From positions 1 through 40,500 of the forward strand of contig DATKWX010000008.1 of NCBI GenBank assembly GCA_035529355.1: a stretch of DNA of 40,500 nt. Reading direction: 5' to 3'. The stretch is from Candidatus Bathyarchaeia archaeon. GTDB taxonomy: Bacteria > Patescibacteriota > Microgenomatia > UBA1400. Position numbers and translations under genes: made by a program. The notes beneath the pieces were generated by a model. It ran no database searches. It was given only the letters and a program-made list of their open reading frames with translations, and was not told where the DNA came from. Below, piece after piece: positions 5,733 to 28,562 of the stretch (its first letter is position 1; every line of letters begins with the position of its first letter).

Positions 5733-6050
5733 TTAGGAAAAAAAGAAATAAATGATTAATAAAGCGATAAGAACACCGCTACCGAAAGTAAGGGTAGTGA
5801 TAAGAATAAACTGAATGATTTTGGTTAGCCTTTTGGTTTTAGAACTGCCAAGTTTTCCTTTAATAAACCTTTTTTTTCTGGATTTACCCACCTTCATAAG
5901 GTTTACTAACTGTTTTTCGGTGTAGAAACGGCGGTTGGTTGGCGAACGAAAAGGCTTGATTTCCTTAGTTTTTTCCCATCTTCGTAAAGTATCTCTGGAG
6001 ATGCTTAGGTAACGGCTGGCTTTACCAATGGAAAACCACTTAGTTTTCAT
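5733..6050 (-). CDS. small HTH DNA-binding protein (MerR/excisionase-type) with C-terminal TM anchor
   Basis: 105 aa. N-terminal SIGKASRYLSISRDTLRRWEKTKEIKPFRSPTNRRFYTEKQL is typical of excisionase/MerR-type HTH. It is followed by a basic linker and a C-terminal hydrophobic helix (IIQFILITTLTFGSGVLIALLIIYFFF). Confidence 0.7.
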   Translation of the reverse strand: MKTKWFSIGKASRYLSISRDTLRRWEKTKEIKPFRSPTNRRFYTEKQLVNLMKVGKSRKKRFIKGKLGSSKTKRLTKIIQFILITTLTFGSGVLIALLIIYFFFS

Positions 6051-6060
6051 ATTTTTAATA

Positions 6061-6113
6061 TACTTGCATATATTTATATATAATCAAAAATATTGTATGC
6101 AAGTATATGCAAG
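6061..6113. promoter_or_regulatory. operator-like inverted/direct repeats in the 5' region of the 5733-6050 gene
   Basis: TACTTGCATA (6061-6070) and its exact reverse complement TATGCAAGTA (6096-6105) are 25 bp apart. An extra direct half-site TATGCAAG lies at 6106-6113. All lie between the putative -10 and the start codon. Confidence 0.4.
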
Positions 6114-6117
6114 CATG

Positions 6118-6126
6118 ATTATATCA
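6118..6126 (-). promoter_or_regulatory. extended -10 promoter element (TGATATAAT on - strand)
   Basis: The + strand reads ATTATATCA, which is TGATATAAT on the - strand (TGnTATAAT form). It lies about 70 nt upstream of the 6050 start. No good -35. Confidence 0.4.
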
Positions 6127-6150
6127 CAAAAAGCTTAATAAAATAGAAAA

Positions 6151-6180
6151 AGGGTCGGACCCTGTCAAGGGTCTGACCCT
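6151..6180. repeat. REP-like palindromic hairpin, copy 1; probable intrinsic terminator of the MerR-like gene on the - strand
   Basis: AGGGTCGGACCCT-GTCA-AGGGTCTGACCCT: 13-nt arms with one G.T wobble. On the - strand it is followed by TTTTCTATTTT. It lies directly after the stop of the 6185-6490 gene. Confidence 0.6.
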
Positions 6181-6184
6181 TTTG

Positions 6185-6490
6185 TCAAATTAACTTTTTG
6201 AGTTTGAAGGAGGGGAAAAGACGGCGTCGGAGTCTTAAGCCGCTTTCTTCAGCAATACTCACTGCTTCCAACAAAAGTTTGACGCCTTTGAGATTTATGC
6301 CTTCTTTTTGGGTGAGGAAAGTAATAAATTGGAGCTGGTTTAAGTCTTCAATAGAAAAGAGGCGTCTGTTAGTGCTTGTTCGGTGTGGTTCAATAAGCCC
6401 GGCTTGTTCATAAAACATTAATGTTCTTGAGTGTAACCCAAGTAGTTTTGCCGCGACTGAGATAGTTAAAATCGGTTCTTTATCAGACAT
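6185..6490 (-). CDS. MerR-family transcriptional regulator, HspR-like
   Basis: 101 aa. LTISVAAKLLGLHSRTLMFYEQAGLIEPHRTSTNRRLFSIEDLNQLQFITFLTQKEGINLKGVKLLLE follows the MerR HTH-wing pattern and the EGINLxGxK motif seen in HspR-type regulators. Confidence 0.8.
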   Translation of the reverse strand: MSDKEPILTISVAAKLLGLHSRTLMFYEQAGLIEPHRTSTNRRLFSIEDLNQLQFITFLTQKEGINLKGVKLLLEAVSIAEESGLRLRRRLFPSFKLKKLI

Positions 6491-6522
6491 AAACAGGCGA
6501 GATGAAAATGTTGTATTGCTTA

Positions 6523-6551
6523 AGTATAAAACCTGATAAAACCATTGTCAA
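6523..6551 (-). promoter_or_regulatory. sigma70-type promoter for the MerR/HspR-like gene
   Basis: On the - strand: TTGACA (6551-6546), a 17-nt spacer, then TATACT (6528-6523). It lies about 33 nt upstream of the ATG at 6490. Confidence 0.6.
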
Positions 6552-6985
6552 GATCGAAAAAAAGAGAAATTTTTTTGTGGTAGTTAGTCCGAATAAAAAA
6601 GTAGTCACAGAATAATGCTTTGCTATGTTTGACTTAGATGAAAAACTTATAATAAAATATAAATTTAATATACACAAAAAAAGGTATAAAAATTATAATA
6701 GAATTGAAGACCTATAAATAGTATAAATAATAGTAAATTTGTAATATTAATTAAAAAAACCTTTTTAACAGATTTCTTTTATTGTAGGCGTTAAATCTTA
6801 CTAATTTAGCAACTAAAAGGTTTTTAAAGAGTAAGTTACCACATTTTTATTGCACAAAAAAATTGATCAAAAACATAAAATTAGAATTTAACCCGGAAAA
6901 ACGTTTTATCCTCTAAACTAGAAGTCCATTTATCCTATAGAATTGCTCTTCGCCTGTAAACTGATATTTTTGGTTTTAATCCGCT

Positions 6986-7001
6986 TTTTTCTTGAGAAAA
7001 A
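6986..7001. promoter_or_regulatory. palindromic motif TTTTTCT-TG-AGAAAAA upstream of giant gene 1 (shared with giant gene 2)
   Basis: The 15-mer TTTTCTTGAGAAAAA at 6987-7001 recurs exactly at 15708-15722. Arms TTTTCT/AGAAAA are reverse complements. Confidence 0.35.
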
Positions 7002-7138
7002 TCATTAAAAACAGTAATTAGAAGATAAAGGTAACACTTTATAGAGTAAATTTAATTTCAAGTAAATAATCCGTCACTGACAATGTTTTTTTAGGTTTTT
7101 ATTTATATCTGTTAGGTTGAAAAAATTATAACTAACAC

Positions 7139-7167
7139 TTGACATAGTACCCATAATAGGTAACAAT
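7139..7167 (+). promoter_or_regulatory. candidate promoter of giant gene 1
   Basis: TTGACA at 7139-7144, with a weak -10 (AACAAT 7162-7167, 17-nt spacer). The context ACTTGACA is shared with the paralog upstream region. Confidence 0.3.
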
Positions 7168-7195
7168 ATCTATTGCAGGCAAACAAGATCGAACT

Positions 7196-10100
7196 ATGTC
7201 AAAATTCACTGCCCATGCCAGTAAAGTTATTGAAAAGGTCGCTTTGGGGCGCCTTAAAAAGGCGGAAGCGAGCCGTTTGCTCAAGGTTTCCCGTAAAACC
7301 GTTTATCAGTGGTTAGCCAAATATAAAAAGGCTAGAGAGAATAGGCTTCGCCACGGAAAAAAAAGAGAATTATTTAAACAAGATGTTTTAAGAATTGGTT
7401 TGGCTAATTCCGGCTTCGGACCGAAGAAAATCTCAGAAGAACTTCGTAAAAGAGAAAAATATCTTAGCCCTAAAAGTGTTTGGCTTTTGCTTAAAGATTT
7501 AGATCTGGGGACGCAGAAAAAGCGTTGGAGTTATACTTTCAACTTCAGGAAACCTCAACAGGTCAAAGATGCTAACTTTCCTGGTTATTTAAGGCTCATT
7601 CCGGAAACAAGGAAGCAGCTTTTGGAAGAAGTATTGATTGGAGATGAACCGGTTTCCCATGTCTGTCAGCGCTACCATATTTCCCGAAAGACTTTCTATA
7701 AATGGTTAAAGCGCTACCAAGAGGCACAAGCTAAAGATACGGTTCTTGTAAAGGCCATGGCAGATAACAATCCTTTGGGTTTTGCTCATCCCCGGGCAAT
7801 TTCTGAAGAACTGCAGGAAAAGATACTATATATAGTAAGAGAGCATCCGGAGTACTCGACTCACAAAGTGGCCCAGGTATTAGCTAAAGTAGGTAACCAT
7901 GGGGTGCAAAATGTTTTTCAAAGGTTTAACCTTAGTACCTATGAGAAAAGATTGGTTTACAGCCAAGCTTATCAGCCAGTAACACTGCCTCCTTTTGCCC
8001 GGATCCTGGATTTCCTCAAACCCGTTTTTGGCAGACTGCCTACCTTGTCTGCTATTCCTCCGCCTCTTATAGCTCTATTAGCAAATCTTCTGGTAAAACT
8101 TCGAAGACTTAGTCTGTCTTCTTTAAAAGAGATTAATTTAAAACAGATTAATTTCAAAAAAATCAAGCCTCTTTTACCCTATTCCTTCCTCAGTTTCCTT
8201 GCCGCTGTTGTTTTCTCCTCAGGCTTTATTTACTGGACTAAAATGTTATCTCAGGCTCCCAATCTGAGTGCTAAGATAGGCTTGGTCATGGCCAGCAGCG
8301 CTTTGTTCTTCGGTTCCATCTTCTTTGTCTATTCCCTCAAGTATTACTTTAGCCTCATCCTGGTTTTGTCTTTTTCCCGGCATTCCCCTGAAGAAGGCGG
8401 AGGTCTGAGCATTGCTTTGAATGGGAGGGTTAATGGTAATAGGAATGGTTATGGTAATGGTAGCAGTAATGCTAATGGCAATACTACTATTAATAGTCAT
8501 ACCGGGTTTTTAGGTTTCCTTAAGAAGGTCTTTGGGATTGAGGTTACTGCTAATGGGAATGGAGAAGGCAATGGTTATTCTAATGGTGAAGGTAGTACCA
8601 CCAGCCAAAACCCCAAACAGTCTTTCCTGGAAAATGGCGGAGAGCATCAGGGAAATGGTCTTCAGCCCAACCTTGACCATATCTTTCTTACCCGTCATCC
8701 TTTCATCTCCATCCAGATTCCTTTGTACAACGAGAAGAGAGTAGCCAAAAGAGTCATCAAAGCCTGCATGGCGATGAAGTATGGCCCGGATTGGCCAGAC
8801 CAACCCCAGTTTGAAGTGATTGTTTGTGATGACTCCAATGACGAAACCAGTAAACTCATCTCAGACCTCCAAAGAACCTATGGCAAGGTTAAGGTCATCA
8901 TGGGAGAAGACGGAGAAAAGATCTCCCAGGTCTCAGCCATCGGTAAACCTACCCTCAAGGTAATCCACCGGGAGAACAGGGAAGGTTTCAAAGGCAAAGC
9001 CCTGTCTTATGCCCTCAAATACATGGATTCCCAAACTGAGTTTTGTTGTGTCTTTGATGCTGACTTTGTTCCTTACCCCGATACCCTTACTCAGTTCATC
9101 AAGTATTTCAAAGCCACCGGCGGCTGGGAAGAGAAACAGAGATTTGTAACAGGAAGCATTAGTTCGATACCTTCTGATATATTGGGAAGGACAAGGCTTA
9201 ACCGCAGTCAGGAGCAAGCCTACCAAGTCCAGGAAGCAGGACTTAAGACCAAGTCCAATATCGCCTGTATTGCCGGCTACCAATGGCATGTCTTAAACAA
9301 ATCAGAAAACTGGATTACCCGGGGAGTAAGATCAGAATATGCCGGATCCTACGTCATTGAAAGACCAAGCCAGGAAATCCTGGGCAGTCTAAAACTCATC
9401 CATGGTTCTTCATACTGCATGAGAGCTGATGTCCTAAAGCACTTTGGCTGGGGAACAAGTATCACTGAAGACTTTGAACTTACCCTAAGACTATATGAAA
9501 AAGGCTTCAAGGTTGTCTACACTCCCTATGTCCAAGCTCCGGCTGAGTGTGTGAGTACCATCAAAAGACTCATCAGGCAGAGAATGAGGTGGGCTGAAGG
9601 CCACTCCTTTAATATCAAGAAGATGTTTGGGAGACTGATGTTTGGTAGGTGGCAAGAGCTTCAACCTTGTCATTCTGAATTTATTTCAGAATCTTCTCCC
9701 AAAACCGTCATACTGAATTTATTCCAGCATCTTTTTCATCTTAGAAAGGTAGGGATCCTGAAACAAGTTCAGGATGACGTTGGACGTCAAGTCCAAAGCC
9801 TGTCCCGAATTCATTTCGGGAATGACGCGGTAGAAGGTAGTGCTAGACGCTTCATCCCCAGCCCTCTTACTTTCCCTGAAAAAGTGGAATTCCTTTACTT
9901 ATCTCCCTACTACCTCCAGGCTTTCTTTTTCCTTTTAGGCACCTTTTCCTGGTTAATTGCCGAAACCGTCTTCAAAGCAAGGCTGCCTTTTTGGACAGCC
10001 TTATGGGGTTGGTCTCTGGTTTTGACCAACTTCTTTGCCTTACCTTTGCTTAATGCTGTTGGCCTCTTTCTTGAAGAAGCAGAAGAAAAAGACTATTCAG

Positions 10101-13100
10101 GTTTAGCTTCCTTCATTATCCTTTCCTACATCCTTGTTCCTTTCCAAGCCTATGCTTCGGTTAAAGGCTTCATGGAGAAAAAAGAAGGTCCTTGGTTCAG
10201 AACTCCCAAGACTGGAAAGATTACTGATGTTTTCAAAAGAGGTAGTTTTTATCGCTGGGTATCAGGAATACTGCCGGGAAGGAAACTGCCTTCTTTTGGT
10301 TTCTCTTTTCAGTCCCGTGACCTGGCCCTAAACTACCTTCATGATATTACTACCAGTAACAATCCTTTTAGCAACTTCAGGATCAGAAAAAGACATTACC
10401 GGGGTTTTATGGCAACCATGCTTGTTTTCCTGATCATTTGTTCTTCCACCATCTTCAGCATGCTGCCTTCAGTTCCCCAAAACAAGATTCCCTATGCCCA
10501 GGCTCAGGGACAGCTGGGGATTAGTCCTACATCAGCAGAGAACAAAGACACAGCAGACAATGGGAACACCAAGCTGGCCTTAAACTCCATCCCACCTTCT
10601 GGTAATGGAAAACCACCAGTGATTCTGACAGACAACAGAGAGAAGAATTCAGAATCAGCTCAGACCTACCTGCCCGGCAGGCAGGATTCAGAACTGGAAG
10701 AAACAGCCATGAGCGGGAATCAAACCCCAAGTCTTAAAGTTGAAGAACATAGTCCTGATAAAACTCCCCAGGACTTTTACCTTAAAGTCGTAGATCCTGA
10801 GTCCGCAGAAGGAAATGATAAAGGTAACTTTGTTCCTTACAGACTGACTAAGAAAGACAACACCATTGAAGTAGAAACCAGATCAGAAAAAGGCATCCAG
10901 AAGATAGTGATGGATAAAAACTCAACAGAAGTTAGACTTTATGAAAAAACCACAGCCCCAGACACCCCCGAGGTGAATTCTGCAGACACCTCGGGGGTGA
11001 ATCAGGAAGCAACTGACTTTGTTTTTAAGGCAGTCTCGGTACCTATCTTTGAGTACCTTCCTAATGATCACCTCCAAGGTGATTCTTCCTGGCAGGATTA
11101 CACTCCTTTAGTACCGGGAACTTTATCTTCCCAAGACAATGAGGATTACGCTATAGTAAGGTTAGACTTTGACCTTGTTTCCCAGGATCCCTTTGTTTCT
11201 ATCCCAGCTTCCATAGAACTTAAGATAGGCTACAGCAAAGACCAGGGAAGCATTAACAAACTTTCCTTTAGCCTTCAAGATAATCCTAATACCAATAGAC
11301 TAAGGTGGGAGACTAAGATAATTCAGAATTCACCTGCCAGCAATGCTTCGCCCGCCAGCAATGCTTCGCAAAACGATGCGGGCTGGCAAAGCGAGGCAGA
11401 CGGGGAATTCAGAATTCAGAATGATAATTTCAACCTGACAGAACAAAGGAATGAAGACCTGGAACAGCTTTACCAGGCTTCCATCATAAACCCTCCGCTG
11501 GTAAAACAAGACTTTGATAACCTCAACCTAAACTGGTTTGATTTCTTCAAACAGTATTCCTACCCTCCTTATTTAGGAAACAGCGTCAGGGTAGAACAAA
11601 ACGCAGAGGATAATACCAATACGGTTATCTTTTATCCGGAAGGAAAACCAGGCAGGTTGGAGGTGGACCCGACGGTAACTACGACGGTGGCTGTTTCAAC
11701 AATCACGGTTCAAAGTTCAGACTTTGATAACTCCGGCTCAACAGGTTTCAAGATAATCTTTGACAATACTAAAGGTGGCACCATTGATGAGTTTTACCAT
11801 GATTCAATTGGTGTCGGAGCTACTAATATTGTTTCTGGTAATGCTGTTTATGATGCTTTGTTTGATATTGAATATGATGACGCATATCTTTCTGGTGATG
11901 CGACTGGTTCTTTAACCTTAATTGAAGCTAGCCCCAATAGGGCAGTAGTGAAGGCAGTTGGTAATGTGACTACAAATGATGTAGCGACGATTGACTACAC
12001 CATTTATCCTGATGGTCAAGTTTTTATGAAAGTGGCTTTAGAGATTAAAGACGGAGAAAGGAATGGTGAAGGTGATATGTTCTTTCTGATTCAGGACTAT
12101 GACGGTTATAAAGAAACTTACTCAAGCGTGGATGATACTAACAAAGCGGTTGTTTTATTGCCTGACGCCAGCGGTTTTGATACAGCTTTAATTCCTTACT
12201 CAAGTTCTTATGTGGGAACAGTTGATAACGCTGCCAGTGAAGCTAATGACAATATCATGGTCAAATACGATTCAGCGGCTTCAGGCTATGATGATGAAAC
12301 CACGGTTGAAAGTTACTGGTTTTTGGATCTTTCCGAAAGCGCTTATGATGCCACGCTTTTGACCAACAGAAGAAACGAATACCGGAATTTGGAAAATCCT
12401 GATGTTTTGCAAAACCTAAGTCCGACGGTAGTTTCTCCATCTGATTCTTCACCTCCAATTCAGTTATCAAAAGGCTCAATCCAGGTTGATGTGCCTAACA
12501 GATACCGGGCAGTGATGCAGACAGGGGATACGGAGGACTATATGTTAATCTATGACCGGGCGCAGAATGACAGCAGTCCTCTTAATACTTATGAATTTAT
12601 GGGGCCATATATTTATGAAGATAGTGCTGCCTATATGTTAAGGTATCATAACTTGAGAAAGACAACTATTCTGGAGTCTTCCAGTGTAAGAGTGAGAGTG
12701 AGAGTTGAGGGTTGTTTTGACACTGTCGCCGGCGGCGCCTGTCTCGGCGGGACTGATTTTACGGTGATTGAAGATTACACTTTTACCACCGAAGGCATCT
12801 ATGTTTCCAACATTACCGACTTTAATAGCGGCGGCGTGGCTTTAGATACACCGGGAGCCAATGAAAACGGCTACAACTTCCTGATGATTGATGGTGATAT
12901 TCAGGATGATGCTTTTGCTGGTACTTTATATTACGGAGACGGCAATACCGAAGCTAGTTCAGCTGTAGACGCGACTTTTGAGGAAACTAACATTTATGCG
13001 ACTTTTCCGGCGGTTGACGCTTCCGGCTATCAGTCGGCTATTGTCGGTATCCAAAGAGATGGTTGGCTTGACCAAGCAGGAGGAACAGAAGACTGGCGGA

Positions 13101-15637
13101 TTGATATCGGCGTCGGCACCACCGACCGGCTCCACGCCCGAGAGGGCAATGTTACGCCAACAGGCCTTCTCTATGCCAAATGGTATTTTTTGCTCCAGCC
13201 CGAGAACGACTTGGATGCTGAAGCCGAAAGAGAGAGCTTTAACAACGATAATCGTAATCCCGACACTCTCACTTTTGCCACCGGTAACCAATGGAGTTTT
13301 GAGGACGATTCGGACTTGGAGGGACTGTGGTATATGGAGAGCGATGGCTCAACTGCTGAAACCGATCAATCCACTAGGGGTAATAACTTAACGGTTAGTA
13401 CAGACGACACTATACCGCGAACCACCGATGCCAGAGAAGGAACCTACTCCAGGGATTTTGAAAGAAGTGACACTGATTCTTTAGGTATTGCCGATGCCAG
13501 CCAGAAAGGACTGGATTTTACCGCTGTTTTTACTCTTTCCGCTTGGGTGAATCTTGAAACAAACACAAGCGCAGGCGATATAATTTGTAAAGGCAGTTCC
13601 GGAGTGGCAGCCGTCGGTGCTTACAGTATGTACTACAGCGCTGGAAATGGCCTTGGAGCTAGATTAAGTAATGGAAGCGCTTTTAGCTGGCTTGAAACAG
13701 CAGGATCGGTATTGCCTGATGGAAGTTGGAGTCACGTGGCACTTACTTTCAACGGCGCTACAGTCAGAGCTTATATCAACGGTTCGGAAAACCGGACCGG
13801 CAGTTTTCCGGCAAGTTACGCCAATACGTTAGCCAACAGTTCTTACTATTTTTGTATCGGCGGCACTGGCGGAAGTACAAGTTGTAGTGGAACCTTTGAT
13901 GGTTTAATTGATGAGGCCGCTGTTTTTTCCCGCGTCCTATTCCCTGCAGAAATTGAGCAGATTTATAAAGCCGGAGTCAAAGAACACTACAACGAAGCTG
14001 AAGGAGCTTATACGGTTGACGCTTCAGGTTCGCAGGTGAATTTGGATATTGATGGAGGGAGTAACGCTTCGACAGCTGTTGCGACGACAGCAGTTACGGT
14101 TGGAGTAACCTCTATCACCGTTGGTTCAACCACAGGCTTTCCCGCCGCTCCCAGTCTAGCCTATATTGACGGCGACAAGTTTTCCTATACCGGTACAACC
14201 GCGACTACCTTTACCGGTATCCCTGCCAACGGAGAACTCTCTGTTACCGATCATGCTATCGGCAGCGTGGTTTCTTCTATGAACCGGTACAAGCCTAACT
14301 TTAAAATCCGTAACTACCGCCAAAACAGCAAGCCAAGTTCCGTGACCATGGAAGGAGCCGCGCTGGTTGAAGGCACAAATTATAATGTTGACTATAAACC
14401 GGTCTCCGACGCCTATTTTGCCGATGAGTTGCTTTGGGCTTCGACATTAGAAAGCGCCGCGGTGGTGACTAGTCCAGATATAGGTGGCGCCGGTTCAGAA
14501 TGCGGTACTAAACCGAGCTATACTACTGGGAAGTATGGAAATGGGGTTAAGTTTGATGCCAGTGGTGAATGCCTGTATTTTGCCACTACGGGTAACTTTG
14601 ATAAGGCAAAAGGGGCGATTGAATTTTGGTATAAACCAACATTAGTCTATAGTGATGCAGCAACCCATTATTTTATTCAATTATACCAAGACGCTAATAA
14701 TTACTTCCAATTTTACAAAGCAAGTAGTAACAATTTGATTTTCATAATCGATGCCAGCAGTACTCAAAGTGGTGTTCGAGTTGTAAGCACTAACTATTCC
14801 TGGGCCGCTGGCGATTGGGTTCATTTACGAATCCAGTGGGACGATACTGATCTCAGTACCGAAACCCAGATGAAAATTTACATTAATGGAGTGGAGTCGG
14901 CCCATGATCATCCTGCAGCCAACGACTATAACTCAGCTAATTTGACTCTTCCAACTAATATAGGAATTAGTAATTCTGCTGCTGGACTCCATGCTGATGG
15001 GATTATCGATGAATTTCGCGTCTACGGTGGTGCTGCCGCCACTCCAATTACTCTGGCCGATGGCGGCGATATTGCTGATACTGACGAATATCTTTTTGAC
15101 GAAGAAAATGATTATCAATTAGACTTTGATCCGGTTGATGCTGATGCTACAGAAAGAGGAGAATATCTTTTCTTGGGTGCTGACACGATGTTTGCGGGGG
15201 TTAATATTGATCTAGCTACCAATGGGGCAACAGCCGGAAGCTTGAACCTTGTTTGGGAATACTGGAATGGGTCTTCTTGGGCTGATCTTGAGAGTATCTC
15301 CGGGTTTACTGATGGTACCAGCAACCTCACCACTGATGGAGCGATTTACTGGAATGCCAATCCTACCAACTGGAGGCCATACTCAGTTAATGGCTCAAGC
15401 GATCTTTACTATATCCGTACCTCTCTGAAGGATGATTCGGGAACTTATTCCACTGATCCAATTGAAAACTTTATTAAAACTGATATCCTAATCCTCCAAT
15501 ACCTGAGCAACGTTGTTTCAGACAGCCAGACCTTGGTGGTCGTACCGGAATACCTCTGGCCATTCCTGGCAATCATTCCTTTTATCCCAGGGTTTTTGAA
15601 GAAAAGAAAAAAGGGTCAGACCCTGTTAAGGATCTGA
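7196..15637 (+). CDS. giant multidomain membrane protein: 2x transposase-type HTH modules + processive GT2 synthase + LamG-containing ectodomain + C-terminal sorting signal
   Basis: Uninterrupted 8442-nt ORF. 7196-7960: two HTH+winged-HTH modules of IS630/IS481 N-terminal type (SRKTVYQWLAKYKK; SPKSVWLLLKDLDL; ISRKTFYKWLKRYQEAQ; HPEYSTHKVAQVL) with no DDE domain. About 8170-8390: TM helices. 8408-8670: Asn/Gly linker. 8695-9625: GT2 core with DD 8828-8833, DAD 9056-9064, TED 9464-9472 and QRMRW 9578-9592. About 9630-9860: 71 extra codons absent from the paralog. 9890-10160: TM helices, then PWFRTPKTGK. 10411-10467: TM anchor. 10470-15544: ectodomain with two LamG/ConA-like modules (about 13315-13970 FDGLIDEAAVFSRVL; about 14425-15030 ADGIIDEFRVYGG). 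15545-15634: PEY-TM-KKRKK tail. Confidence 0.85.
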   Translation: MSKFTAHASKVIEKVALGRLKKAEASRLLKVSRKTVYQWLAKYKKARENRLRHGKKRELFKQDVLRIGLANSGFGPKKISEELRKREKYLSPKSVWLLLKDLDLGTQKKRWSYTFNFRKPQQVKDANFPGYLRLIPETRKQLLEEVLIGDEPVSHVCQRYHISRKTFYKWLKRYQEAQAKDTVLVKAMADNNPLGFAHPRAISEELQEKILYIVREHPEYSTHKVAQVLAKVGNHGVQNVFQRFNLSTYEKRLVYSQAYQPVTLPPFARILDFLKPVFGRLPTLSAIPPPLIALLANLLVKLRRLSLSSLKEINLKQINFKKIKPLLPYSFLSFLAAVVFSSGFIYWTKMLSQAPNLSAKIGLVMASSALFFGSIFFVYSLKYYFSLILVLSFSRHSPEEGGGLSIALNGRVNGNRNGYGNGSSNANGNTTINSHTGFLGFLKKVFGIEVTANGNGEGNGYSNGEGSTTSQNPKQSFLENGGEHQGNGLQPNLDHIFLTRHPFISIQIPLYNEKRVAKRVIKACMAMKYGPDWPDQPQFEVIVCDDSNDETSKLISDLQRTYGKVKVIMGEDGEKISQVSAIGKPTLKVIHRENREGFKGKALSYALKYMDSQTEFCCVFDADFVPYPDTLTQFIKYFKATGGWEEKQRFVTGSISSIPSDILGRTRLNRSQEQAYQVQEAGLKTKSNIACIAGYQWHVLNKSENWITRGVRSEYAGSYVIERPSQEILGSLKLIHGSSYCMRADVLKHFGWGTSITEDFELTLRLYEKGFKVVYTPYVQAPAECVSTIKRLIRQRMRWAEGHSFNIKKMFGRLMFGRWQELQPCHSEFISESSPKTVILNLFQHLFHLRKVGILKQVQDDVGRQVQSLSRIHFGNDAVEGSARRFIPSPLTFPEKVEFLYLSPYYLQAFFFLLGTFSWLIAETVFKARLPFWTALWGWSLVLTNFFALPLLNAVGLFLEEAEEKDYSGLASFIILSYILVPFQAYASVKGFMEKKEGPWFRTPKTGKITDVFKRGSFYRWVSGILPGRKLPSFGFSFQSRDLALNYLHDITTSNNPFSNFRIRKRHYRGFMATMLVFLIICSSTIFSMLPSVPQNKIPYAQAQGQLGISPTSAENKDTADNGNTKLALNSIPPSGNGKPPVILTDNREKNSESAQTYLPGRQDSELEETAMSGNQTPSLKVEEHSPDKTPQDFYLKVVDPESAEGNDKGNFVPYRLTKKDNTIEVETRSEKGIQKIVMDKNSTEVRLYEKTTAPDTPEVNSADTSGVNQEATDFVFKAVSVPIFEYLPNDHLQGDSSWQDYTPLVPGTLSSQDNEDYAIVRLDFDLVSQDPFVSIPASIELKIGYSKDQGSINKLSFSLQDNPNTNRLRWETKIIQNSPASNASPASNASQNDAGWQSEADGEFRIQNDNFNLTEQRNEDLEQLYQASIINPPLVKQDFDNLNLNWFDFFKQYSYPPYLGNSVRVEQNAEDNTNTVIFYPEGKPGRLEVDPTVTTTVAVSTITVQSSDFDNSGSTGFKIIFDNTKGGTIDEFYHDSIGVGATNIVSGNAVYDALFDIEYDDAYLSGDATGSLTLIEASPNRAVVKAVGNVTTNDVATIDYTIYPDGQVFMKVALEIKDGERNGEGDMFFLIQDYDGYKETYSSVDDTNKAVVLLPDASGFDTALIPYSSSYVGTVDNAASEANDNIMVKYDSAASGYDDETTVESYWFLDLSESAYDATLLTNRRNEYRNLENPDVLQNLSPTVVSPSDSSPPIQLSKGSIQVDVPNRYRAVMQTGDTEDYMLIYDRAQNDSSPLNTYEFMGPYIYEDSAAYMLRYHNLRKTTILESSSVRVRVRVEGCFDTVAGGACLGGTDFTVIEDYTFTTEGIYVSNITDFNSGGVALDTPGANENGYNFLMIDGDIQDDAFAGTLYYGDGNTEASSAVDATFEETNIYATFPAVDASGYQSAIVGIQRDGWLDQAGGTEDWRIDIGVGTTDRLHAREGNVTPTGLLYAKWYFLLQPENDLDAEAERESFNNDNRNPDTLTFATGNQWSFEDDSDLEGLWYMESDGSTAETDQSTRGNNLTVSTDDTIPRTTDAREGTYSRDFERSDTDSLGIADASQKGLDFTAVFTLSAWVNLETNTSAGDIICKGSSGVAAVGAYSMYYSAGNGLGARLSNGSAFSWLETAGSVLPDGSWSHVALTFNGATVRAYINGSENRTGSFPASYANTLANSSYYFCIGGTGGSTSCSGTFDGLIDEAAVFSRVLFPAEIEQIYKAGVKEHYNEAEGAYTVDASGSQVNLDIDGGSNASTAVATTAVTVGVTSITVGSTTGFPAAPSLAYIDGDKFSYTGTTATTFTGIPANGELSVTDHAIGSVVSSMNRYKPNFKIRNYRQNSKPSSVTMEGAALVEGTNYNVDYKPVSDAYFADELLWASTLESAAVVTSPDIGGAGSECGTKPSYTTGKYGNGVKFDASGECLYFATTGNFDKAKGAIEFWYKPTLVYSDAATHYFIQLYQDANNYFQFYKASSNNLIFIIDASSTQSGVRVVSTNYSWAAGDWVHLRIQWDDTDLSTETQMKIYINGVESAHDHPAANDYNSANLTLPTNIGISNSAAGLHADGIIDEFRVYGGAAATPITLADGGDIADTDEYLFDEENDYQLDFDPVDADATERGEYLFLGADTMFAGVNIDLATNGATAGSLNLVWEYWNGSSWADLESISGFTDGTSNLTTDGAIYWNANPTNWRPYSVNGSSDLYYIRTSLKDDSGTYSTDPIENFIKTDILILQYLSNVVSDSQTLVVVPEYLWPFLAIIPFIPGFLKKRKKGQTLLRI
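9669..9826. mobile_element. cluster of four small palindromic (GTCATTC..GAATGAC family) hairpin units embedded in frame in the giant CDS
   Basis: 9669-9693: GTCATTCTGAA-TTTAT-TTCAGAATC. 9707-9731: degenerate copy. 9755-9778: ATCCTGAA-ACAAG-TTCAGGATGAC. 9802-9826: GTCCCGAA-TTCAT-TTCGGGAATGAC. The segment is missing from the paralog at the homologous position. The same unit family is intergenic at 23913-24002. Confidence 0.6.
11333..11368 (+). repeat. 18-bp tandem duplication (PASNAS x2) inside the giant CDS
   Basis: cctgccagcaatgcttcg / cccgccagcaatgcttcg, 17 of 18 identical. It is flanked by ATTCAGAAT(TCA) repeats at 11321-11332 and 11407-11422. Confidence 0.7.
15545..15634 (+). other. C-terminal tripartite sorting signal (PEY - hydrophobic helix - KKRKK)
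   Basis: PEYLWPFLAIIPFIPGFLKKRKKGQTLLRI. The layout matches PEP-CTERM/PEF-CTERM-type signals. The motif PFIP and the basic cluster are shared with the paralog tail. Confidence 0.55.
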
Positions 15638-15640
15638 CCT
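15612..15640. repeat. REP-like palindromic hairpin, copy 2 (degenerate), containing the stop codon of giant gene 1
   Basis: AGGGTCAGACCCT-GTTA-AGGATCTGACCT. It is followed by CCTAACGAA (15638-15646) and CCCTAACGAA (15652-15661), whose reverse complement flanks copy 4. Confidence 0.55.
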
Positions 15641-15707
15641 AACGAATTAAACCCTAACGAACTAAAGAAGCAAAAATACCTTAAGCAAAAATAGTCTTTT
15701 TACCTCA

Positions 15708-15722
15708 TTTTCTTGAGAAAAA
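15708..15722. promoter_or_regulatory. palindromic motif TTTTCTTGAGAAAAA upstream of giant gene 2
   Basis: Exact 15-mer match to 6987-7001. A second shared 13-mer, TTGATCAAAAACA, lies at 15739-15751 (also 6863-6875). Confidence 0.35.
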
Positions 15723-15897
15723 CTGCCGGGTATAAAGTTTGATCAAAAACAGGCAAACTTCAGCTAATTGATTTTAAGATTTTCTTGGATCTTAGTCTCC
15801 AGTCACATAGAACAGAATATTTTTCTTCTTAAAAATGATTTTGATAGCTAATTTTCTTCTACTACAGAAAAAAAGCCAAGAAAGTGAAAATTATTAC

Positions 15898-15928
15898 TTG
15901 ACAGATTATATCCAATTAATGTTAACAT
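15898..15928 (+). promoter_or_regulatory. candidate promoter of giant gene 2
   Basis: TTGACA at 15898-15903 in the same ACTTGACA context as 7139. Only a weak -10 (TAACAT 15923-15928, 19-nt spacer). TATAAT at 15930-15935 is too far away for this -35. Confidence 0.25.
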
Positions 15929-15980
15929 ATATAATATTAGACAGAAAATCAAAAAGAAGTACCCAAAATCTGTTAACAAA

Positions 15981-18900
15981 ATGACTACCAAACTGTCTGT
16001 TCAGCAAAGAATAAGGTTGATAAATAAGGTTACTAAAGAGGGAAGGTCTGTTTCTGAGGTTTGCAAAAAAGCCGGTATTTCCCGTGTCCTTTTTTACCGC
16101 TTACTAAAACGGTATCAGGAAGAGGGAACAGTTAGGCCTAAAAAAAACAAAGGAAAAAGGCCAACCCGGAGAGTCAGCGAAGAAAATGTTATCAAAATAA
16201 TTAGCTTGGTTAAGAAACATCCCCGGTGGTCTTCTCATCAGTTAAGCCAACATGTTTCCACAGGCAATCATGGGGTATGGAATGTTTTAGCCAGGTTGCA
16301 CCTAAATACCGTTAAGAAAAGGGAGTATTTCAGCAAGCAAAGCCGCAATTTAACCTTTGGCCGGTTGCGCAAACTGGCAAGAGGAGAGATTAAAAGTCCC
16401 AAGCCAACAGCTTTAAAACTCAAGGCCAGCAGGCGTTTGGCCATGATTAAGCAAATAGAAGAAGGGCAAAAGCCGGTAGCCCAGGCTTGCCGGGAGTTTG
16501 GTATTTCCCGGCCAGTCTTTTATAAATGGTATCAGCGTTATCTTGAAGCTCCGAGAGGGCAGAAATTGGTGGCCATGAAAGATAAAGAACGGAAAATTGA
16601 ACGCTTTAGCCGCCAGATTCCGGTTAAATACGAAAAAGCGGTGTTGCAGGCAGTGGTTAGGCATCCCGAATACGGGATTAAGAAAATAATGGTTTGTTTA
16701 CCCCAAATAGCGGCTAAGCCAATTGTAGGTTATCATGGCGTTCAGCGGGTTTTGGAAAGGAATAAACTAAACACTTATGAGTTGAGAAAAGCTTATGCTC
16801 AAACTCAGCTAACTCCCGTCATTAGAATCATTAGCATTCTTGAAGATAGCTTTGCCAAAATAGCTTACCTACCTCTTCTTGTCAGACAGAAATTTATCAT
16901 ATTAGGCAGTCTTGCGGTCTTTTCCTGCTTTTTGACCGTGGTAGGATTGGGAGCCTTAGGCTACTTTGGCAGTTTACTAAAACAAGTGCCAGGAAATGCT
17001 AAAATTGGTATTATTTTGGCTGGTAACGCCTTGGTTATTGGTTCAATCTTTTTTTGCTACTCTTTAAAGTACTATTTTAATTTGGCTTTAGTGCTTTCTT
17101 TTTCCAGGCATTCTCCGGAAGAAGGCGGAGGTCTAAGCCTATCCTTAAATGGGATAGTAAATAACAACAGGGCGGGTAATGGTAAAGGCAACGGTAAGCC
17201 TGGGTTTTTAGGTTTCCTTAAAAAGGTCTTTGGGGTTGACCTAGGCGCTAATGAGGGCGGTAACGGTTTTAAGAATGGCAAAAAGACATTTTTAGGTAAT
17301 GGTTTACGAATGCAGGATGGTGGTTTACAGATTAATATGGAGAGGATTGACCTTAACCGTCATCCTTTCATTTCCGTCCAGATCCCTTTGTACAATGAGA
17401 AGAGAGTAGCCAAAAGAGTCATCAAGGCCTGCATGGCCATGAAGTATGGCCCTGACTGGCCAGATAAACCCCAGTTTGAGGTAATCGTTTGTGATGACTC
17501 CAATGATGAAACCAGTAAACTCATCTCAGACCTCCAGCAAACCTATGGCAAGGTTAAGGTAGTTAGGGGAGAAGACGGAGAAAAGATCTCCCAAGTCTCA
17601 GCCATCGGTAAACCTACCCTCAAGGTAATCCATCGGGAGAACAGGGAAGGTTTCAAAGGCAAAGCTTTATCTTATGCCCTGAAGCACATGGATCCTCAAA
17701 CCGAGTTTGTTTGTGTCTTTGATGCTGACTTTGTTCCTTACCCCGATACCTTAATCCAGTTTATCAAGTATTTTAAGGCTACCGGTGGCTTTGAAGAAAA
17801 ACAGAGTTTTGTAACAAAGAATATTAGTTCGATACCATATGATATATTGGCAAGGAATAATCCACAGGGAAATACCAACCTAACCAGAGATCAGAAGCAA
17901 GCCTATCAAACCCAGGAAGCAAGACTTAAGAACAAGTCCAATATAGCCTGTATTGCCGGCTACCAATGGCATGTCTTAAACAAATCAGAAAACTGGATTA
18001 CTAGGGGAGTCAGATCAGAATATGCCGGATCCTACGTCATTGAAAGACCAAGCCAGGAAATCCTAGGCAGTTTAAAGCTTATCCATGGCTCTTCATACTG
18101 CATGAGAGCTGATGTCCTAAAGCACTTTGGCTGGGGTAGTAGTATTACTGAAGACTTTGAACTTACCCTAAGACTATATGAAAAAGGTTTCAAGGTTGTC
18201 TACACTCCCTATGTCCAAGCTCCGGCTGAGTGTGTGAGTACCATCAAAAGACTGGTTAGACAGAGAATGAGATGGGCTGAAGGCCACTCGTTTAATATCA
18301 AGAAGATGTTCTGGTTGCTGATAAAAAGTCCAGGGATGAACTTAATGGAGAAAACAGAGCTTTTATATTACACACCCTATTACCTCCAGGCATTTTTATT
18401 TTTAGTTGGCACTTTTTCCTGGTTGTTGGCAGAAACCGTCTTTAAAGCCCATCTGCCTTTCTGGACCTCACTTTGGGGTTGGAGTCTAATTTTGACCAAC
18501 TTTTTCAGCCTGCCTTTACTTAATGCCGTGGGTTTATTCCTTGAGGAAGCGGAGGAAAAAGATTATTCAGGCCTGATTTCCTTTATTATCCTTTCCTACA
18601 TCCTTGTTCCTTTTCAAGCTTATGCTTCGGTCAAAGGATTCCTGGAGAAAGAAGAAGGTCCCTGGTTCAGAACTCCCAAGACTGGAAAGATTACTGATAT
18701 TTTTAAAAGAGGTCAATTTTACCGTTGGATAGCAGGAATTTTGCCCAGGCGGGAACCAGCATTGCAAGGAGTGATGGGAAGCGGCTTGGTTCCTGCTTAT
18801 GCTTATCAGCAAAACCCTTATTTGGTCCGGCAAACAGCCACAGGCTGGTTTAACAATTTTCGCGTCCAACCCAAGCGTTTGCGTTGGGTTTCAAAAATGG

Positions 18901-19595
18901 CCTTGTCTCTTTTACTGGCTTTTTCCGTGACTCTTTTAAGTTTAAGTCAAGGGGTAAGAGAAGTTCAGGCAAGCCCTTGGAACAATTTATACTTACATGA
19001 AGATAATGGGGTATGCAGCACTTTGGATACCATGACGACTTCAGTCGGAACAACAGGCCAACAGCAAATAGTGATTTCCGCCTCAAATACGGGTCCTTTT
19101 AACTGGTATTCAAACTCCTTGCCTACCGGTACTCTTGATGCTTCAACAACCGCTGGCAACTGGAATTTCCATTGGGAGGGAGTATTTTATGCTGCCGCTG
19201 GTGGAGCCAAGGTGGTACTTAATATTGTGATTAGTTTGGTTGATGCTTCAGATTGTAGCAGCAGTGCCGATAATTTATATAGCGGAACTTACCAGTTTAG
19301 CTCCAATGGTCCGATAACGATTACTACTGCTGTTCCAGCACGAACAATCACTACGGCTGCTCCCAAAAGAGTCAGGTGGCAGACTTCTTGGAGTAGTACC
19401 AATAAGGCCGGTTCGACAATGAGCATTAAATACAATGATACGGTGGTCAGTGGTTTTGATTCCAATCTTCAGCCAGCGACTTTAACGATTCCGGAAAGAC
19501 TAGTTTTACTGCTGGTGGTAGCGCCCTTTATTCCCATACTTGCAAGTTGGCTTAAGAAGAAAAGAGAAAAGGGTCAGACCCTTGACAGGGTCTGA
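15981..19595 (+). CDS. paralogous multidomain membrane protein: 2x HTH modules + processive GT2 synthase + short ectodomain + C-terminal sorting signal
   Basis: 1204-aa ORF. 15981 to about 16800: two HTH modules (GISRVLFYRLLKRYQEEG; GISRPVFYKWYQRYLEAPRG; HPEYGIKKIM). TM helices and an NG linker follow. 17361-18300: GT2 core nearly identical in DNA to copy 1, with QRMRW at 18261-18275. More TM helices and PWFRTPKTGK follow. 18897-18955: TM anchor. The ectodomain is about 180 aa. 19491-19592: PER-TM-KKKREK tail. Confidence 0.85.
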   Translation: MTTKLSVQQRIRLINKVTKEGRSVSEVCKKAGISRVLFYRLLKRYQEEGTVRPKKNKGKRPTRRVSEENVIKIISLVKKHPRWSSHQLSQHVSTGNHGVWNVLARLHLNTVKKREYFSKQSRNLTFGRLRKLARGEIKSPKPTALKLKASRRLAMIKQIEEGQKPVAQACREFGISRPVFYKWYQRYLEAPRGQKLVAMKDKERKIERFSRQIPVKYEKAVLQAVVRHPEYGIKKIMVCLPQIAAKPIVGYHGVQRVLERNKLNTYELRKAYAQTQLTPVIRIISILEDSFAKIAYLPLLVRQKFIILGSLAVFSCFLTVVGLGALGYFGSLLKQVPGNAKIGIILAGNALVIGSIFFCYSLKYYFNLALVLSFSRHSPEEGGGLSLSLNGIVNNNRAGNGKGNGKPGFLGFLKKVFGVDLGANEGGNGFKNGKKTFLGNGLRMQDGGLQINMERIDLNRHPFISVQIPLYNEKRVAKRVIKACMAMKYGPDWPDKPQFEVIVCDDSNDETSKLISDLQQTYGKVKVVRGEDGEKISQVSAIGKPTLKVIHRENREGFKGKALSYALKHMDPQTEFVCVFDADFVPYPDTLIQFIKYFKATGGFEEKQSFVTKNISSIPYDILARNNPQGNTNLTRDQKQAYQTQEARLKNKSNIACIAGYQWHVLNKSENWITRGVRSEYAGSYVIERPSQEILGSLKLIHGSSYCMRADVLKHFGWGSSITEDFELTLRLYEKGFKVVYTPYVQAPAECVSTIKRLVRQRMRWAEGHSFNIKKMFWLLIKSPGMNLMEKTELLYYTPYYLQAFLFLVGTFSWLLAETVFKAHLPFWTSLWGWSLILTNFFSLPLLNAVGLFLEEAEEKDYSGLISFIILSYILVPFQAYASVKGFLEKEEGPWFRTPKTGKITDIFKRGQFYRWIAGILPRREPALQGVMGSGLVPAYAYQQNPYLVRQTATGWFNNFRVQPKRLRWVSKMALSLLLAFSVTLLSLSQGVREVQASPWNNLYLHEDNGVCSTLDTMTTSVGTTGQQQIVISASNTGPFNWYSNSLPTGTLDASTTAGNWNFHWEGVFYAAAGGAKVVLNIVISLVDASDCSSSADNLYSGTYQFSSNGPITITTAVPARTITTAAPKRVRWQTSWSSTNKAGSTMSIKYNDTVVSGFDSNLQPATLTIPERLVLLLVVAPFIPILASWLKKKREKGQTLDRV
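19491..19592 (+). other. C-terminal tripartite sorting signal (PER - hydrophobic helix - KKKREK)
   Basis: PERLVLLLVVAPFIPILASWLKKKREKGQTLDRV. It shares (V/I)PE-x-L, PFIP and a Lys-rich cluster with the 15545-15634 signal, although the two ectodomains are unrelated. Confidence 0.55.
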
Positions 19596-19598
19596 CCC
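19571..19598. repeat. REP-like palindromic hairpin, copy 3, containing the stop codon of giant gene 2 and lying 5' of the RAYT gene
   Basis: GGGTCAGACCCT-TGAC-AGGGTCTGACCC, a 12-bp perfect stem. The loop TGAC is the reverse complement of the copy 1 loop GTCA. Confidence 0.65.
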
Positions 19599-19615
19599 TC
19601 ATGTTAGCCTGAGCT

Positions 19616-20275
19616 ATGCCCAGAAAGAATGTGGTGAAAATTTACGTTGAAGACGGCTATTACCATCTCTATAACAGAGGTGTAGAGAAAAGAGTGATTT
19701 TTAGCGACAAAAGGGATTATAAAACTTTCCTTTACTTTTTAAAAAGCTACCTCACACCTGTGCCAAAAAAGATTCCTCCTTTTGACAGGCGGCAAGTAAG
19801 GAGTTTATCAAAGGATATTGATTTGCTTGTTTACTGCCTTATGCCTAACCATTTCCATTTATTAGTTAAACAGAAAAGCGAAAGGGGAATAACTAAATTT
19901 ATGCGCGCCTTATGTACTAATTACGTGATGTATTTTAATCAAAGGTATCAGCGTTTGGGAGGTTTATTTCAAAGTGCTTATAAAGCGGTTTTGGTAGAAA
20001 CTGATGAGCAACTATTGCATCTTTCCCGGTATATTCATTTGAATCCATCAGAATTACTTGGGAAACATCAATTATTAGAAGATTACCTTTATTCAAGCTA
20101 CGATGACTATATGGGAAAAAGAAAGACAAATTGGCTTAAAACAGAAACGATTTTGGATTATTTTAAAACTGCTCGTAAAACCAGCCTTAATGATTTTCTT
20201 TCTTATCAAGGTTTTGTGGAATCTTATAAAGAAGACGAGAAGGAATTCAGTTTTAAAGGAGTAACGTTAGAATAA
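19616..20275 (+). CDS. REP-associated tyrosine transposase (RAYT; IS200/IS605-like Y1 HUH transposase)
   Basis: 219 aa. YHLYNRGVEKRVIF; HUH motif in LVYCLMPNHFHLLVKQ; GGLFQSAYKAVLV with the catalytic-type Tyr; LSRYIHLNP. The gene is bracketed by REP hairpins at 19571-19598 and 20297-20330. Confidence 0.85.
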   Translation: MPRKNVVKIYVEDGYYHLYNRGVEKRVIFSDKRDYKTFLYFLKSYLTPVPKKIPPFDRRQVRSLSKDIDLLVYCLMPNHFHLLVKQKSERGITKFMRALCTNYVMYFNQRYQRLGGLFQSAYKAVLVETDEQLLHLSRYIHLNPSELLGKHQLLEDYLYSSYDDYMGKRKTNWLKTETILDYFKTARKTSLNDFLSYQGFVESYKEDEKEFSFKGVTLE

Positions 20276-20296
20276 TTATTATTTGTTTTTTATTCG

Positions 20297-20330
20297 TTAG
20301 GGTCTGACCCTGTTAAGGGTCAGACCCTAA
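20297..20330. repeat. REP-like palindromic hairpin, copy 4 (3' of RAYT)
   Basis: TTAGGGTCTGACCCT-GTTA-AGGGTCAGACCCTAA, a 15-bp perfect stem. The central A-T pair is flipped relative to copies 1-3, which preserves pairing. The 5' flank TTCGTTAGGG is the reverse complement of CCCTAACGAA next to copy 2. Confidence 0.65.
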
Positions 20331-23877: not shown

Positions 23878-23912
23878 CGTGAATTACGAAATAGTTAGCC
23901 TTATTGTTCAAT

Positions 23913-24002: not shown

Positions 24003-24054
24003 AGAGGTAGATTTTGTAACTCAAGCTAATTTAATGATCTAAAACCTTGCATTT

Positions 24055-24076: not shown

Positions 24077-24089
24077 AAAGGAGAGGATT

Positions 24090-25712: not shown

Positions 25713-25737
25713 ATTGGGATAATGCCAGTTTTTAAAA

Positions 25738-28558: not shown

Positions 28559-28562
28559 TCTT

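Follow-up and report, generated by a model that had tools for sequence, protein, structure and literature searches.

Transposase-type DNA-binding modules fused to a membrane glycan synthase, and a family-specific promoter element that co-varies with them

What does a DNA-binding array do at the N-terminus of a membrane-bound glycan synthase? The question is raised by two neighbouring giant genes on contig DATKWX010000008.1, of which a stretch of 40,500 nt (the window) was analysed for open reading frames (ORFs), Pfam and NCBIfam domains, repeats and promoters. Both ORF products contain two tandem units of a helix-turn-helix (HTH) plus a winged HTH, two membrane helices, and a cellulose-synthase-like processive glycosyltransferase family 2 (GT2) domain:

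7196-15637, plus strand: giant gene 1, ORF of 2813 amino acids (aa).
15981-19595, plus strand: paralog, ORF of 1204 aa.

An earlier note on this DNA read the N-terminal region as domesticated transposase-type DNA-binding domains that might act on the gene's own upstream region. This idea now has strong indirect support, because it is favoured by a family-specific bipartite promoter element that co-varies with the recognition helix of the protein. We lean towards the view that the proteins are membrane-tethered autoregulators, in which the DNA-binding domain of a transposase has been domesticated onto a glycan synthase.

Judged by profile and predicted fold, the N-terminal modules look like bipartite (PAI+RED-like) DNA-binding domains of the IS481/IS630 transposase type. 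Their limits were set with a module hidden Markov model (HMM), and the fold was predicted with AlphaFold2 (AF2) and scored by predicted local distance difference test (pLDDT):

7196-7558 (aa 1-121), plus strand: protein 1 module 1, PAI-like HTH with helix VSRKTVYQW plus RED-like winged HTH; Pfam HTH_29/HTH_28/HTH_17; module HMM E 7e-35; AF2 pLDDT 84-97.
7586-7975 (aa 131-260), plus strand: protein 1 module 2, HTH with helix ISRKTFYKW plus winged HTH with GNHGVQNV; Pfam HTH_28/HTH_23/HTH_32/HTH_Tnp_1; module HMM E 5e-63.
15981-16352 (aa 1-124), plus strand: paralog module 1, helix GISRVLFYRL; found by Pfam; module HMM E 4e-55.
16407-16820 (aa 143-280), plus strand: paralog module 2, helix GISRPVFYKW; found by Pfam; NCBIfam IS481 positions 1-112, E 1e-31; module HMM E 5e-56.

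The two repeats that the earlier note placed at aa 1 to about 255 of protein 1 (7196-7960) are recovered alike by Pfam, module BLASTP and module HMM. The range was right to within a few residues (the HMM puts the end of module 2 near 7975), and all five peptide motifs that it quoted are present in the translations. Profile searches of the N-terminal region, which it had suggested as a check, give significant HTH matches in both proteins. Specifically, in the N-terminal 320 aa of both proteins Pfam recognises HTH_28, HTH_23 and HTH_29 twice each, along with HTH_32 and HTH_Tnp_1, at E-values of 1e-9 to 1e-17 and with scores above the curated cut-offs. Both proteins contain a true internal duplication: by BLASTP, module 1 aligns to module 2 with E 7e-9 (protein 1) and 5e-14 (paralog).

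Among NCBIfam models the modules match transpos_IS481 best (E 1e-21 and 1e-31), then IS630 and IS3. Coverage of the transpos_IS481 model stops at positions 1-112 of 284 (positions 2-110 for protein 1 module 2), and the score is under the 224-bit cut-off. No DDE or rve family was found by Pfam or NCBIfam in either protein, nor in 87 homologs retrieved with the paralog as query (33-53% identity), about 75 of which contain both HTH and GT2 Pfam families. A repeat search of 6000-20300 found no inverted repeats flanking either gene, the sole inverted repeats being terminator-like palindromes. The genes are thus not an insertion sequence (IS) element, as the earlier note had held from the lack of a DDE domain and of terminal inverted repeats (TIRs) in or around them. 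The nearest true transposases, in a profile search with 20 matches, are IS481-family proteins with an rve domain, and they match a single module only.

The predicted fold points in the same direction as the profiles. A profile of 29 N-termini searched against the PDB matches the RED subdomain of Sleeping Beauty transposase (E 1.3e-3), and an AF2 model built on that 29-sequence alignment has a mean pLDDT of 89 and contains four small helical bundles. The top Foldseek matches of this model by E-value are 9a50 (an RpsB-RpoC integrative model, probability 0.21), Pax5 (0.94), Tc3 (0.95) and Pax6 (0.84), the most probable being the bipartite DNA-binding domain of Tc3 and the paired domain of Pax5. 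Across the family, S-R..Y.W is kept in both PAI-like recognition helices and the arginine ending each module is invariant. The N-terminal region has a median isoelectric point of 10.2 and a median net charge of +28, and the modules do look like conserved, very basic DNA-binding domains, as the earlier note proposed.

The upstream regions of the family contain a conserved composite element. Relatives were collected from GTDB species representatives (165 relatives), and locus counts hereinafter refer to the best 80. Enrichment of k-mers in 61 upstream regions returned TGTTAACA in 18 loci against 0.7 expected, together with AGTACCCA, TTGACA and TGAAGCTAA. The composite element reads TTGACA, a few bases, box 1 (G)T(A/T)TA(C/T)CCA, five unspecified nucleotides (N5), and box 2 (T/G)GT(T)AACA(T/A). 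Its copies in the window are:

7139-7167, plus strand: candidate promoter/operator of class B, giant gene 1, TTGACATAGTACCCATAATAGGTAACAAT; -35 TTGACA 7139-7144, box 1 GTACCCA 7147-7153, N5, box 2 GGTAACA 7159-7165, and an overlapping -10-like AACAAT ending at 7167.
15898-15928, plus strand: candidate promoter/operator O1 of class A, paralog, TTGACAGATTATATCCAATTAATGTTAACAT; TTGACA 15898-15903, box 1 TATCCA 15909-15914, N5, box 2 TGTTAACA(T) 15920-15928; matches the consensus of 18 distinct loci.
15959-15978, plus strand: candidate operator O2, paralog; GTACCCA, N5, TGTTAACA; 51 bp after O1, ending 2 nt before the ATG.

These three are the only occurrences of box1-N5-box2 in the window (0.095 expected; none of 200 shuffles reaches three). 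All lie upstream of the two giant genes on the plus strand, and an inverted partner is never found downstream. A sigma-70 scan scores the element of giant gene 1 at 10/12 with a 17-nt spacer.

The element is essentially private to the HTH-GT2 gene family, as indicated by what follows its matches elsewhere. A strict regular expression run over about 740 kb of loci on both strands gave 51 matches, of which 44 have an HTH-GT2 ORF starting within the next 400 nt. Five of the remaining seven are upstream of an HTH-GT2 gene with a mis-set start or at more than 400 nt, or upstream of a gene inserted just before one. The possibility that the element is a general promoter was discarded, since even a loose expression matches almost only upstream of family genes in loci taken with 4-kb flanks, whose other genes lack it. 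We also scanned the entire metagenome-contig collection for TTGACANNNNNTAYCCANNNNNTGTTAACAT, without reference to any protein. Matches numbered 73, in 71 stretches, and 64 of them had at least 250 nt downstream. An HTH-module ORF follows in 59 of these 64, mostly 55-65 nt further on. In the other five, the element copy precedes a gene for a 471-aa PTPS_related membrane protein. The class B expression found no copies in the metagenome loci.

The PTPS_related gene was seen with a class A element in L058 (2119-3629) and also in L120, L132, L092, L095 and L113; in L058 and L120 the gene that immediately follows it is an HTH-GT2 gene, which has an element copy of its own. It is possibly a second member of the regulon.

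The two classes differ in their layout. A recognisable copy is present in about 62 of the 80 family genes, and class B elements precede 20 non-identical ones. Box 2 of class B coincides in part with a -10-like hexamer that is normally spaced (16-17 nt), and the start codon follows about 0-25 nt later in most genes. Most class A (TGTTAACAT) loci have a second TGTT(A/T)ACA box, placed 37-51 bp after O1 and immediately 5' of the Shine-Dalgarno sequence; this box often has its own box 1 at the same 5-nt spacing. The sequence between -35 and -10 is conserved; in class A it holds the asymmetric box 1, and no strong dyad is seen there by eye. The O2 variants (TGTTTACA) are not palindromic and are uncompensated in O1, and the class B boxes (GGTAACA) are asymmetric and directly repeated in L024. 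An RNA stem formed by two TGTTAACA boxes was rejected for these reasons. Asymmetric, directly repeated sites also argue against a symmetric dimer and fit tandem monomeric bipartite modules. An Rfam scan of the whole window gave no matches.

The shared upstream motifs that the earlier note had in mind, in 6491-7195 and 15638-15980, fared less well. An exact 15-mer, TTTTCTTGAGAAAAA (6987-7001 and 15708-15722), and an exact 13-mer, TTGATCAAAAACA (6863-6875 and 15739-15751), which contains the palindrome TTGATCAA, are common to both regions. Their significance is borderline (2 of 200 shuffles reach 15 nt), their order differs between the two regions, and they are absent from the other loci. The paralog pairs of L002 and L003 have no long exact words common to their upstream regions.

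The evidence that links the element to the protein is an association between box 2 and the residues C-terminal to the S-R pair conserved in recognition helix 1:

Box 2 [GA]GTAACA: recognition helix 1 RK[TA], 20 of 20.
Box 2 GTTAACA: recognition helix 1 [RKT][VTIA]x, 22 of 22.
Box 2 T[TC]TTAACA: recognition helix 1 RQx, 4 of 4.

The uncorrected Fisher p is 2e-12. In the metagenome set, the 58 proteins behind class A matches all show a helix of the class A type, with RKT in none of them. What is informative is the constancy of both partners in each class, against non-coding surroundings that have become randomised and N-termini that now share only about 30% identity.

The remainder of each protein is predicted to be a membrane-embedded synthase with an ectodomain:

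8174-8332 (aa 327-345 and 361-379), plus strand: two hydrophobic helices of protein 1, Kyte-Doolittle scan.
16875-17060 (aa 299-317 and 342-360), plus strand: two hydrophobic helices of the paralog, hydropathy scan.
8699-10285, plus strand: protein 1 GT2 catalytic and channel region; Pfam Glyco_tranf_2_3/Glyco_trans_2_3/Glycos_transf_2, partial NCBIfam matches to PgaC/CelA; motifs DD, DAD, TED, QRMRW and FRTPKTG.
17364-18770, plus strand: paralog GT2 catalytic and channel region, found by Pfam; nearest solved relative BcsA, E 1e-6.

Hydropathy gives six hydrophobic segments in protein 1 and seven in the paralog, two of them between HTH and GT2 in each protein and others C-terminal to the GT2 catalytic domain. 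The even number of helices after a very basic N-terminus suggests that the HTH array is cytoplasmic, on the same side as the GT2 domain. GT2 families of Pfam match both proteins with E 1e-14 to 1e-20, and the translations contain VCDDSND, FDADF, ITEDFE and RQRMRWAEG, motifs that are invariant across 12 homologs. Matches to PgaC, CelA and NodC are far under their cut-offs, and that to the cellulose synthase BcsA is weak (E 1e-6). The GT2 part looks like an active processive synthase. Beyond the core, there are further membrane helices, a large acidic ectodomain, which in protein 1 holds two Laminin_G_3 domains, and a C-terminal hydrophobic tail. Both proteins end (15530-15637; 19490-19595) in a short P-E motif, a P/F/I-rich hydrophobic helix and a KKRKK cluster, an arrangement that resembles a sorting or anchor signal.

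In giant gene 1, an in-frame palindrome-rich insert of about 70 codons lies at about 9652-9870, just after QxxRW; the paralog is without it. Several hairpins lie within the insert, GTCATACTGAATTTATTCCAG...CCTGAAACAAGTTCAGGATGAC among them, and its folding is far better than that of shuffled sequences (z = -3.7). It resembles an element of the miniature inverted-repeat transposable element or repetitive extragenic palindromic (REP) type, tolerated within the coding sequence.

A mechanism can be proposed from these parts. The protein would be a polytopic glycan synthase of the membrane that bears a large ectodomain at the surface and, in the cytoplasm, tandem DNA-binding modules domesticated from an IS481-type transposase. 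The modules would recognise a bipartite operator consisting of box 1 TA(C/T)CCA, 5 nt, and box 2 (T/G)GT(T)AACA, so that a membrane-tethered enzyme would regulate transcription of its own gene. The most likely direction is repression, since the spacer between -35 and -10 is taken up by the element, as is the -10 itself and, in class A, the ribosome-binding region. In our reading, the two tandem modules may map onto the two tandem sites. Paralog-specific pairs (SRKT with GGTAACA; SR[VT][LIV] with TGTTAACA) would keep the copies separately controlled despite their homogenised cores. More speculatively, the state of the synthase or of the ectodomain may modulate DNA binding, the gene may be held at the membrane, or the DNA-binding domain may be released by proteolysis.

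Several observations weigh against autoregulation. A serious caveat is that the promoter and the N-terminal coding region are adjacent and pass on as a unit, so their co-variation could reflect shared descent. In a neighbour-joining tree, class B appears in about three places and class A in two, with poorly resolved deep branches; the classes thus form only a few clades, and independent helix/box events are few. About 18 of the 80 family genes are without a recognisable element. The class A distance from -35 to TAACAT is 19 nt, a MerR-type geometry, and no canonical promoter is called there. MerR-like genes of either of two types lie divergently upstream in about 28 of the 80 loci. The Foldseek E-values are weak (0.2-0.5 for the whole four-domain model, 0.2-0.4 for Pax5 and Tc3) and the TM-scores low, a result that we attribute to the comparison of four flexibly linked subdomains as one body. 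Finally, the membrane topology is deduced solely from the hydropathy scan.

The geometry of class A and the MerR-like neighbours bear most directly on an alternative that we consider unlikely and nevertheless take seriously, namely that the element is bound by another factor, most likely the divergent MerR-like proteins, otherwise a dedicated sigma or other factor, while the HTH array binds DNA elsewhere, for example to anchor the nucleoid or gene cluster to the membrane or to control other genes. Both types of MerR-like gene are present in the window:

6185-6490, minus strand: MerR-like gene M2, 101 aa, divergent from giant gene 1, a conserved neighbour; Pfam MerR_1 E 9e-17.
5733-6050, minus strand: MerR/HTH_17-like gene M1, 105 aa, with a C-terminal hydrophobic helix; found by Pfam.

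By its predicted helix, M1 is a membrane-anchored MerR/HTH_17 protein. MerR-regulated promoters have a spacer of 19-20 nt with a dyad-symmetric operator, and TGTTAACA is a perfect palindrome, consistent with action of such proteins on class A. M1 is mostly found beside class A genes, M2 being the commoner type overall, and the extremely basic N-terminus of the synthase would also fit low-specificity DNA binding. On the other side, the helix HPRTLMLYE of M2 is identical beside class A, B and C genes and so does not track box 2, which tracks the synthase's own helix without exception. Many element-bearing genes, the window paralog included, are without a MerR gene within 4 kb, and the direct, asymmetric repetition of box1-N5-box2 and the non-palindromic class B boxes and O2 variants speak against a symmetric site. 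It is possible that MerR-like proteins act on the same promoters, especially the class A promoters with their 19-nt spacer, and the 15-mer and 13-mer could be sites for them.

It is quite improbable that the HTH array has lost DNA binding and become a regulatory or protein-interaction domain, such as an autoinhibitory lid or an oligomerisation module, with the element being merely a strong conserved promoter. Other systems have put HTH folds to use in protein contacts, and the N-termini of IS481-type proteins have a leucine-zipper-like dimerisation stretch, to which weak Pfam LZ_Tnp_IS481 matches correspond. This idea is at odds with the retention of S-R..Y.W and of high positive charge across members that are only about 30% identical, with the co-variation of helix and box 2, and with the conserved -35/-10 spacer sequence, which RNA polymerase alone does not explain. 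It also does not account for two sister synthases, L079 (3470-6121) and L080 (3347-8245), with cores 50-51% identical, in which an unrelated N-terminal HTH of the MerR/HTH_17 type, the type of M1, replaces the transposase-type pair. It is hard to see why another DNA-binding domain should occupy this position unless selection acts on the binding of DNA. No operator element was found upstream of these two synthases, and a search with the L080 N-terminus as query gave no useful matches.

The fusion of the HTH array to GT2 is genuine and recurrent. An N-terminal profile run against 1.84 billion cluster representatives (50% identity clusters) matches 329 clusters at E<=1e-30, so that the family comprises at least this number. 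Among the top 150 matches, every protein longer than 430 aa runs on into the GT2 core; the shorter ones, mostly ending within the membrane helices or shortly ahead of them, are most probably fragments cut off at contig ends. Of the best 80 GTDB loci, 72 align from query residue 24 or earlier through the core. The earlier note had allowed that relatives might always encode the HTH part as a separate transposase gene with a DDE domain; instead, HTH module and GT2 core lie in one ORF in 80 of 82 cases among the fetched loci. Our survey thus bears out the recurrence about which that note had asked, in hundreds of diverged proteins. A spurious or recent accidental fusion (through an IS481-like insertion, frameshift, mis-assembly or gene-calling error), as database names such as 'transposase, partial' for some fragments and the IS200-like gene adjoining the paralog might suggest, is effectively refuted by the same continuous architecture in many samples and assemblers, by the absence of DDE domains and TIRs, and by an element confined to the coding strand upstream of the genes.

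Most family members come from Microgenomates/Patescibacteria metagenome-assembled genomes (MAGs), and paralogs are often clustered. Named hosts are Woese-, Curtiss-, Chisholm-, Gottesman- and Daviesbacteria, CPR3 and Nealsonbacteria. The label 'Candidatus Bathyarchaeia archaeon' of the MAG is probably a binning error, because all lineage-named relatives are Patescibacteria/Microgenomates; 'Bathyarchaeia', 'Nevskiaceae' and 'Gammaproteobacteria' on some family MAGs look like binning or naming errors. The unit of two HTH modules and membrane helices also occurs without GT2, fused to an extracytoplasmic LysM domain in a 428-aa protein (P0205) and as a 342-aa protein (L036 4001-5029) that adjoins a full-length paralog. 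A literature search found no description of an HTH-GT2 fusion.

Taking autoregulation from the membrane as the preferred reading, a further step may be considered, which we regard as possible and put forward tentatively: transposase and DNA site may have been domesticated together. The 5' end of an IS481-like element, comprising end repeat, promoter and DNA-binding domain, would have been captured by a synthase gene and its module duplicated, giving a self-contained enzyme that reads its own promoter by the code RKT = GGTAACA, R[VT][LIV] = TGTTAACA and RQ[ST] = TTTTAACA, with tandem modules on tandem operators and occupancy set by the state of the synthase or ectodomain. The bona fide IS481-like element L153 contains rve domains, 46-nt terminal repeats and a transposase with an RKT helix. 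Its ends carry AGTAACAT, GTATACA, TGTAAACA and GGTAACAC boxes, the same GT(W)(W)ACA type as in the family; this is one case, read after the fact.

Functionally, the nearest kinds of protein are the transmembrane transcription regulators (ToxR, CadC, TfoS) and the enzyme-repressor fusions (PutA). In one respect the window proteins resemble ToxR-type regulators: an N-terminal DNA-binding domain, here predicted to be cytoplasmic, and transmembrane helices are in one polypeptide, from which regulation would be exerted at the membrane. They differ in that the DNA-binding part is a tandem transposase-type paired-like module rather than an OmpR-type winged helix or XRE HTH, and in that its partner is a polytopic processive enzyme with an ectodomain rather than a periplasmic sensor domain. 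Transmembrane transcription regulators, including ToxR, CadC, TcpP, TfoS and BcrR, have been surveyed by Demey et al. 2023 (PMC10269533). Each of HTH_28, HTH_32 and HTH_29 is very rare there, represented by about 10-13 of 50,302 regulators, and the covered part of its supplements contains no GT2 term (PMC10269533). Both features by which it defines such a regulator (PMC10269533), a DNA-binding domain and at least one transmembrane segment, are present in the window proteins, the latter by hydropathy.

Like PutA, the window proteins would combine an enzyme and the repressor of its own gene in one polypeptide. Unlike PutA, which has a ribbon-helix-helix domain and is peripheral at the membrane, they are predicted to be integral and their DNA-binding domain to be transposase-derived. 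PutA, BirA and NadR are enzyme-repressor fusions, and PutA switches between DNA and membrane.

The modules share with the IS481/IS630/Tc1-mariner transposases and Pax the HTH_28/23 and HTH_29/32 families and probably bipartite PAI+RED-like three-helix bundles, the predicted fold resembling Tc3, Pax5 and Pax6. In IS elements the promoter can lie in the left end, and the candidate operator here likewise overlaps the gene's own promoter. Unlike in transposases, there is no DDE domain, no TIR and no sign of mobility, and the module is tandem-duplicated and fused to a membrane enzyme. The synthase part is like BcsA, PgaC, NodC and the chitin and hyaluronan synthases, with a GT-A domain containing D, DxD, TED, QxxRW and an FxTPK-like motif and flanked by membrane helices. 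Known processive GT2 synthases are controlled by PilZ/cyclic di-GMP or partner proteins, and we know of none with an N-terminal DNA-binding array. The window proteins differ from them in that array, and their scores against the named families are far under the cut-offs.

The two window genes have not evolved evenly along their length. As the earlier note observed, the N-termini are only weakly similar, in contrast to the GT2 cores, and the tandem layout is kept in both. We find 32-37% identity for the N-termini; for the cores (8369-10400 versus 17097-18700), DNA identity reaches 90-92% over 300-nt blocks and protein blocks are 85-98% identical. In three genomes (those of the window, L002 and L003), GT2 cores are 68-77% identical overall within a genome, with blocks of 90-100%, and 43-56% identical between genomes. 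The HTH regions of within-genome paralogs are 33-40% identical, and the N-terminus of the window paralog is 51% identical to that of the second gene of L002. From these identities, the cores are homogenised within genomes and the N-termini form old lineages that are maintained separately. The pattern indicates concerted evolution (gene conversion) limited to the core and excluding the HTH regions and ectodomains.

Other features accompany the family genes. Terminator-like palindromes GGGTCAGACCC..GGGTCTGACCC follow genes at 6151-6186, 15606-15639 and 19564-19599. Both giant ORFs run into such a palindrome, from which their last residues (KKGQTL...) and stop codons are read. Directly after the third copy there is an ORF for an IS200-like Y1 transposase (19616-20275), which could be a REP-associated transposase. 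Genes for bAvd / 23S_rRNA_IVP-like four-helix bundles adjoin family genes in L015 (3525-3939), where the gene lies between the promoter element and the HTH-GT2 start, and in L002 (14235-14612). Genes of the bAvd type accompany diversity-generating retroelements, and such retroelements could target the giant ectodomains. Further downstream in the window lies a glycosylation cluster (20341-37535) with GT4, PMT_2-like, methyltransferase and epimerase genes; the product of the ORF at 28563-30371 contains GT2, radical SAM and SPASM domains together.

The family-specific promoter element is the main new result of this analysis. It belongs to a widespread, uncharacterised family of giant surface-polymer synthases, in which each enzyme seems to come with a transcription factor of its own and with a recognisable operator; this operator offers a practical way of locating the regulon in genomes of uncultured organisms. 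If the proposed autoregulation is true, the family would add a new class of membrane-tethered regulator, the polytopic enzyme itself being the regulator, a bacterial domestication of a transposase DNA-binding domain comparable to Pax in animals, and a small, testable protein-DNA recognition code. Candidate Phyla Radiation bacteria have few classical regulators, and control of their surface is, to our knowledge, largely unknown. If transposase and site were indeed domesticated together, these tiny symbiotic bacteria would couple the making of cell-surface polymer directly to transcription, with no soluble regulator in between.

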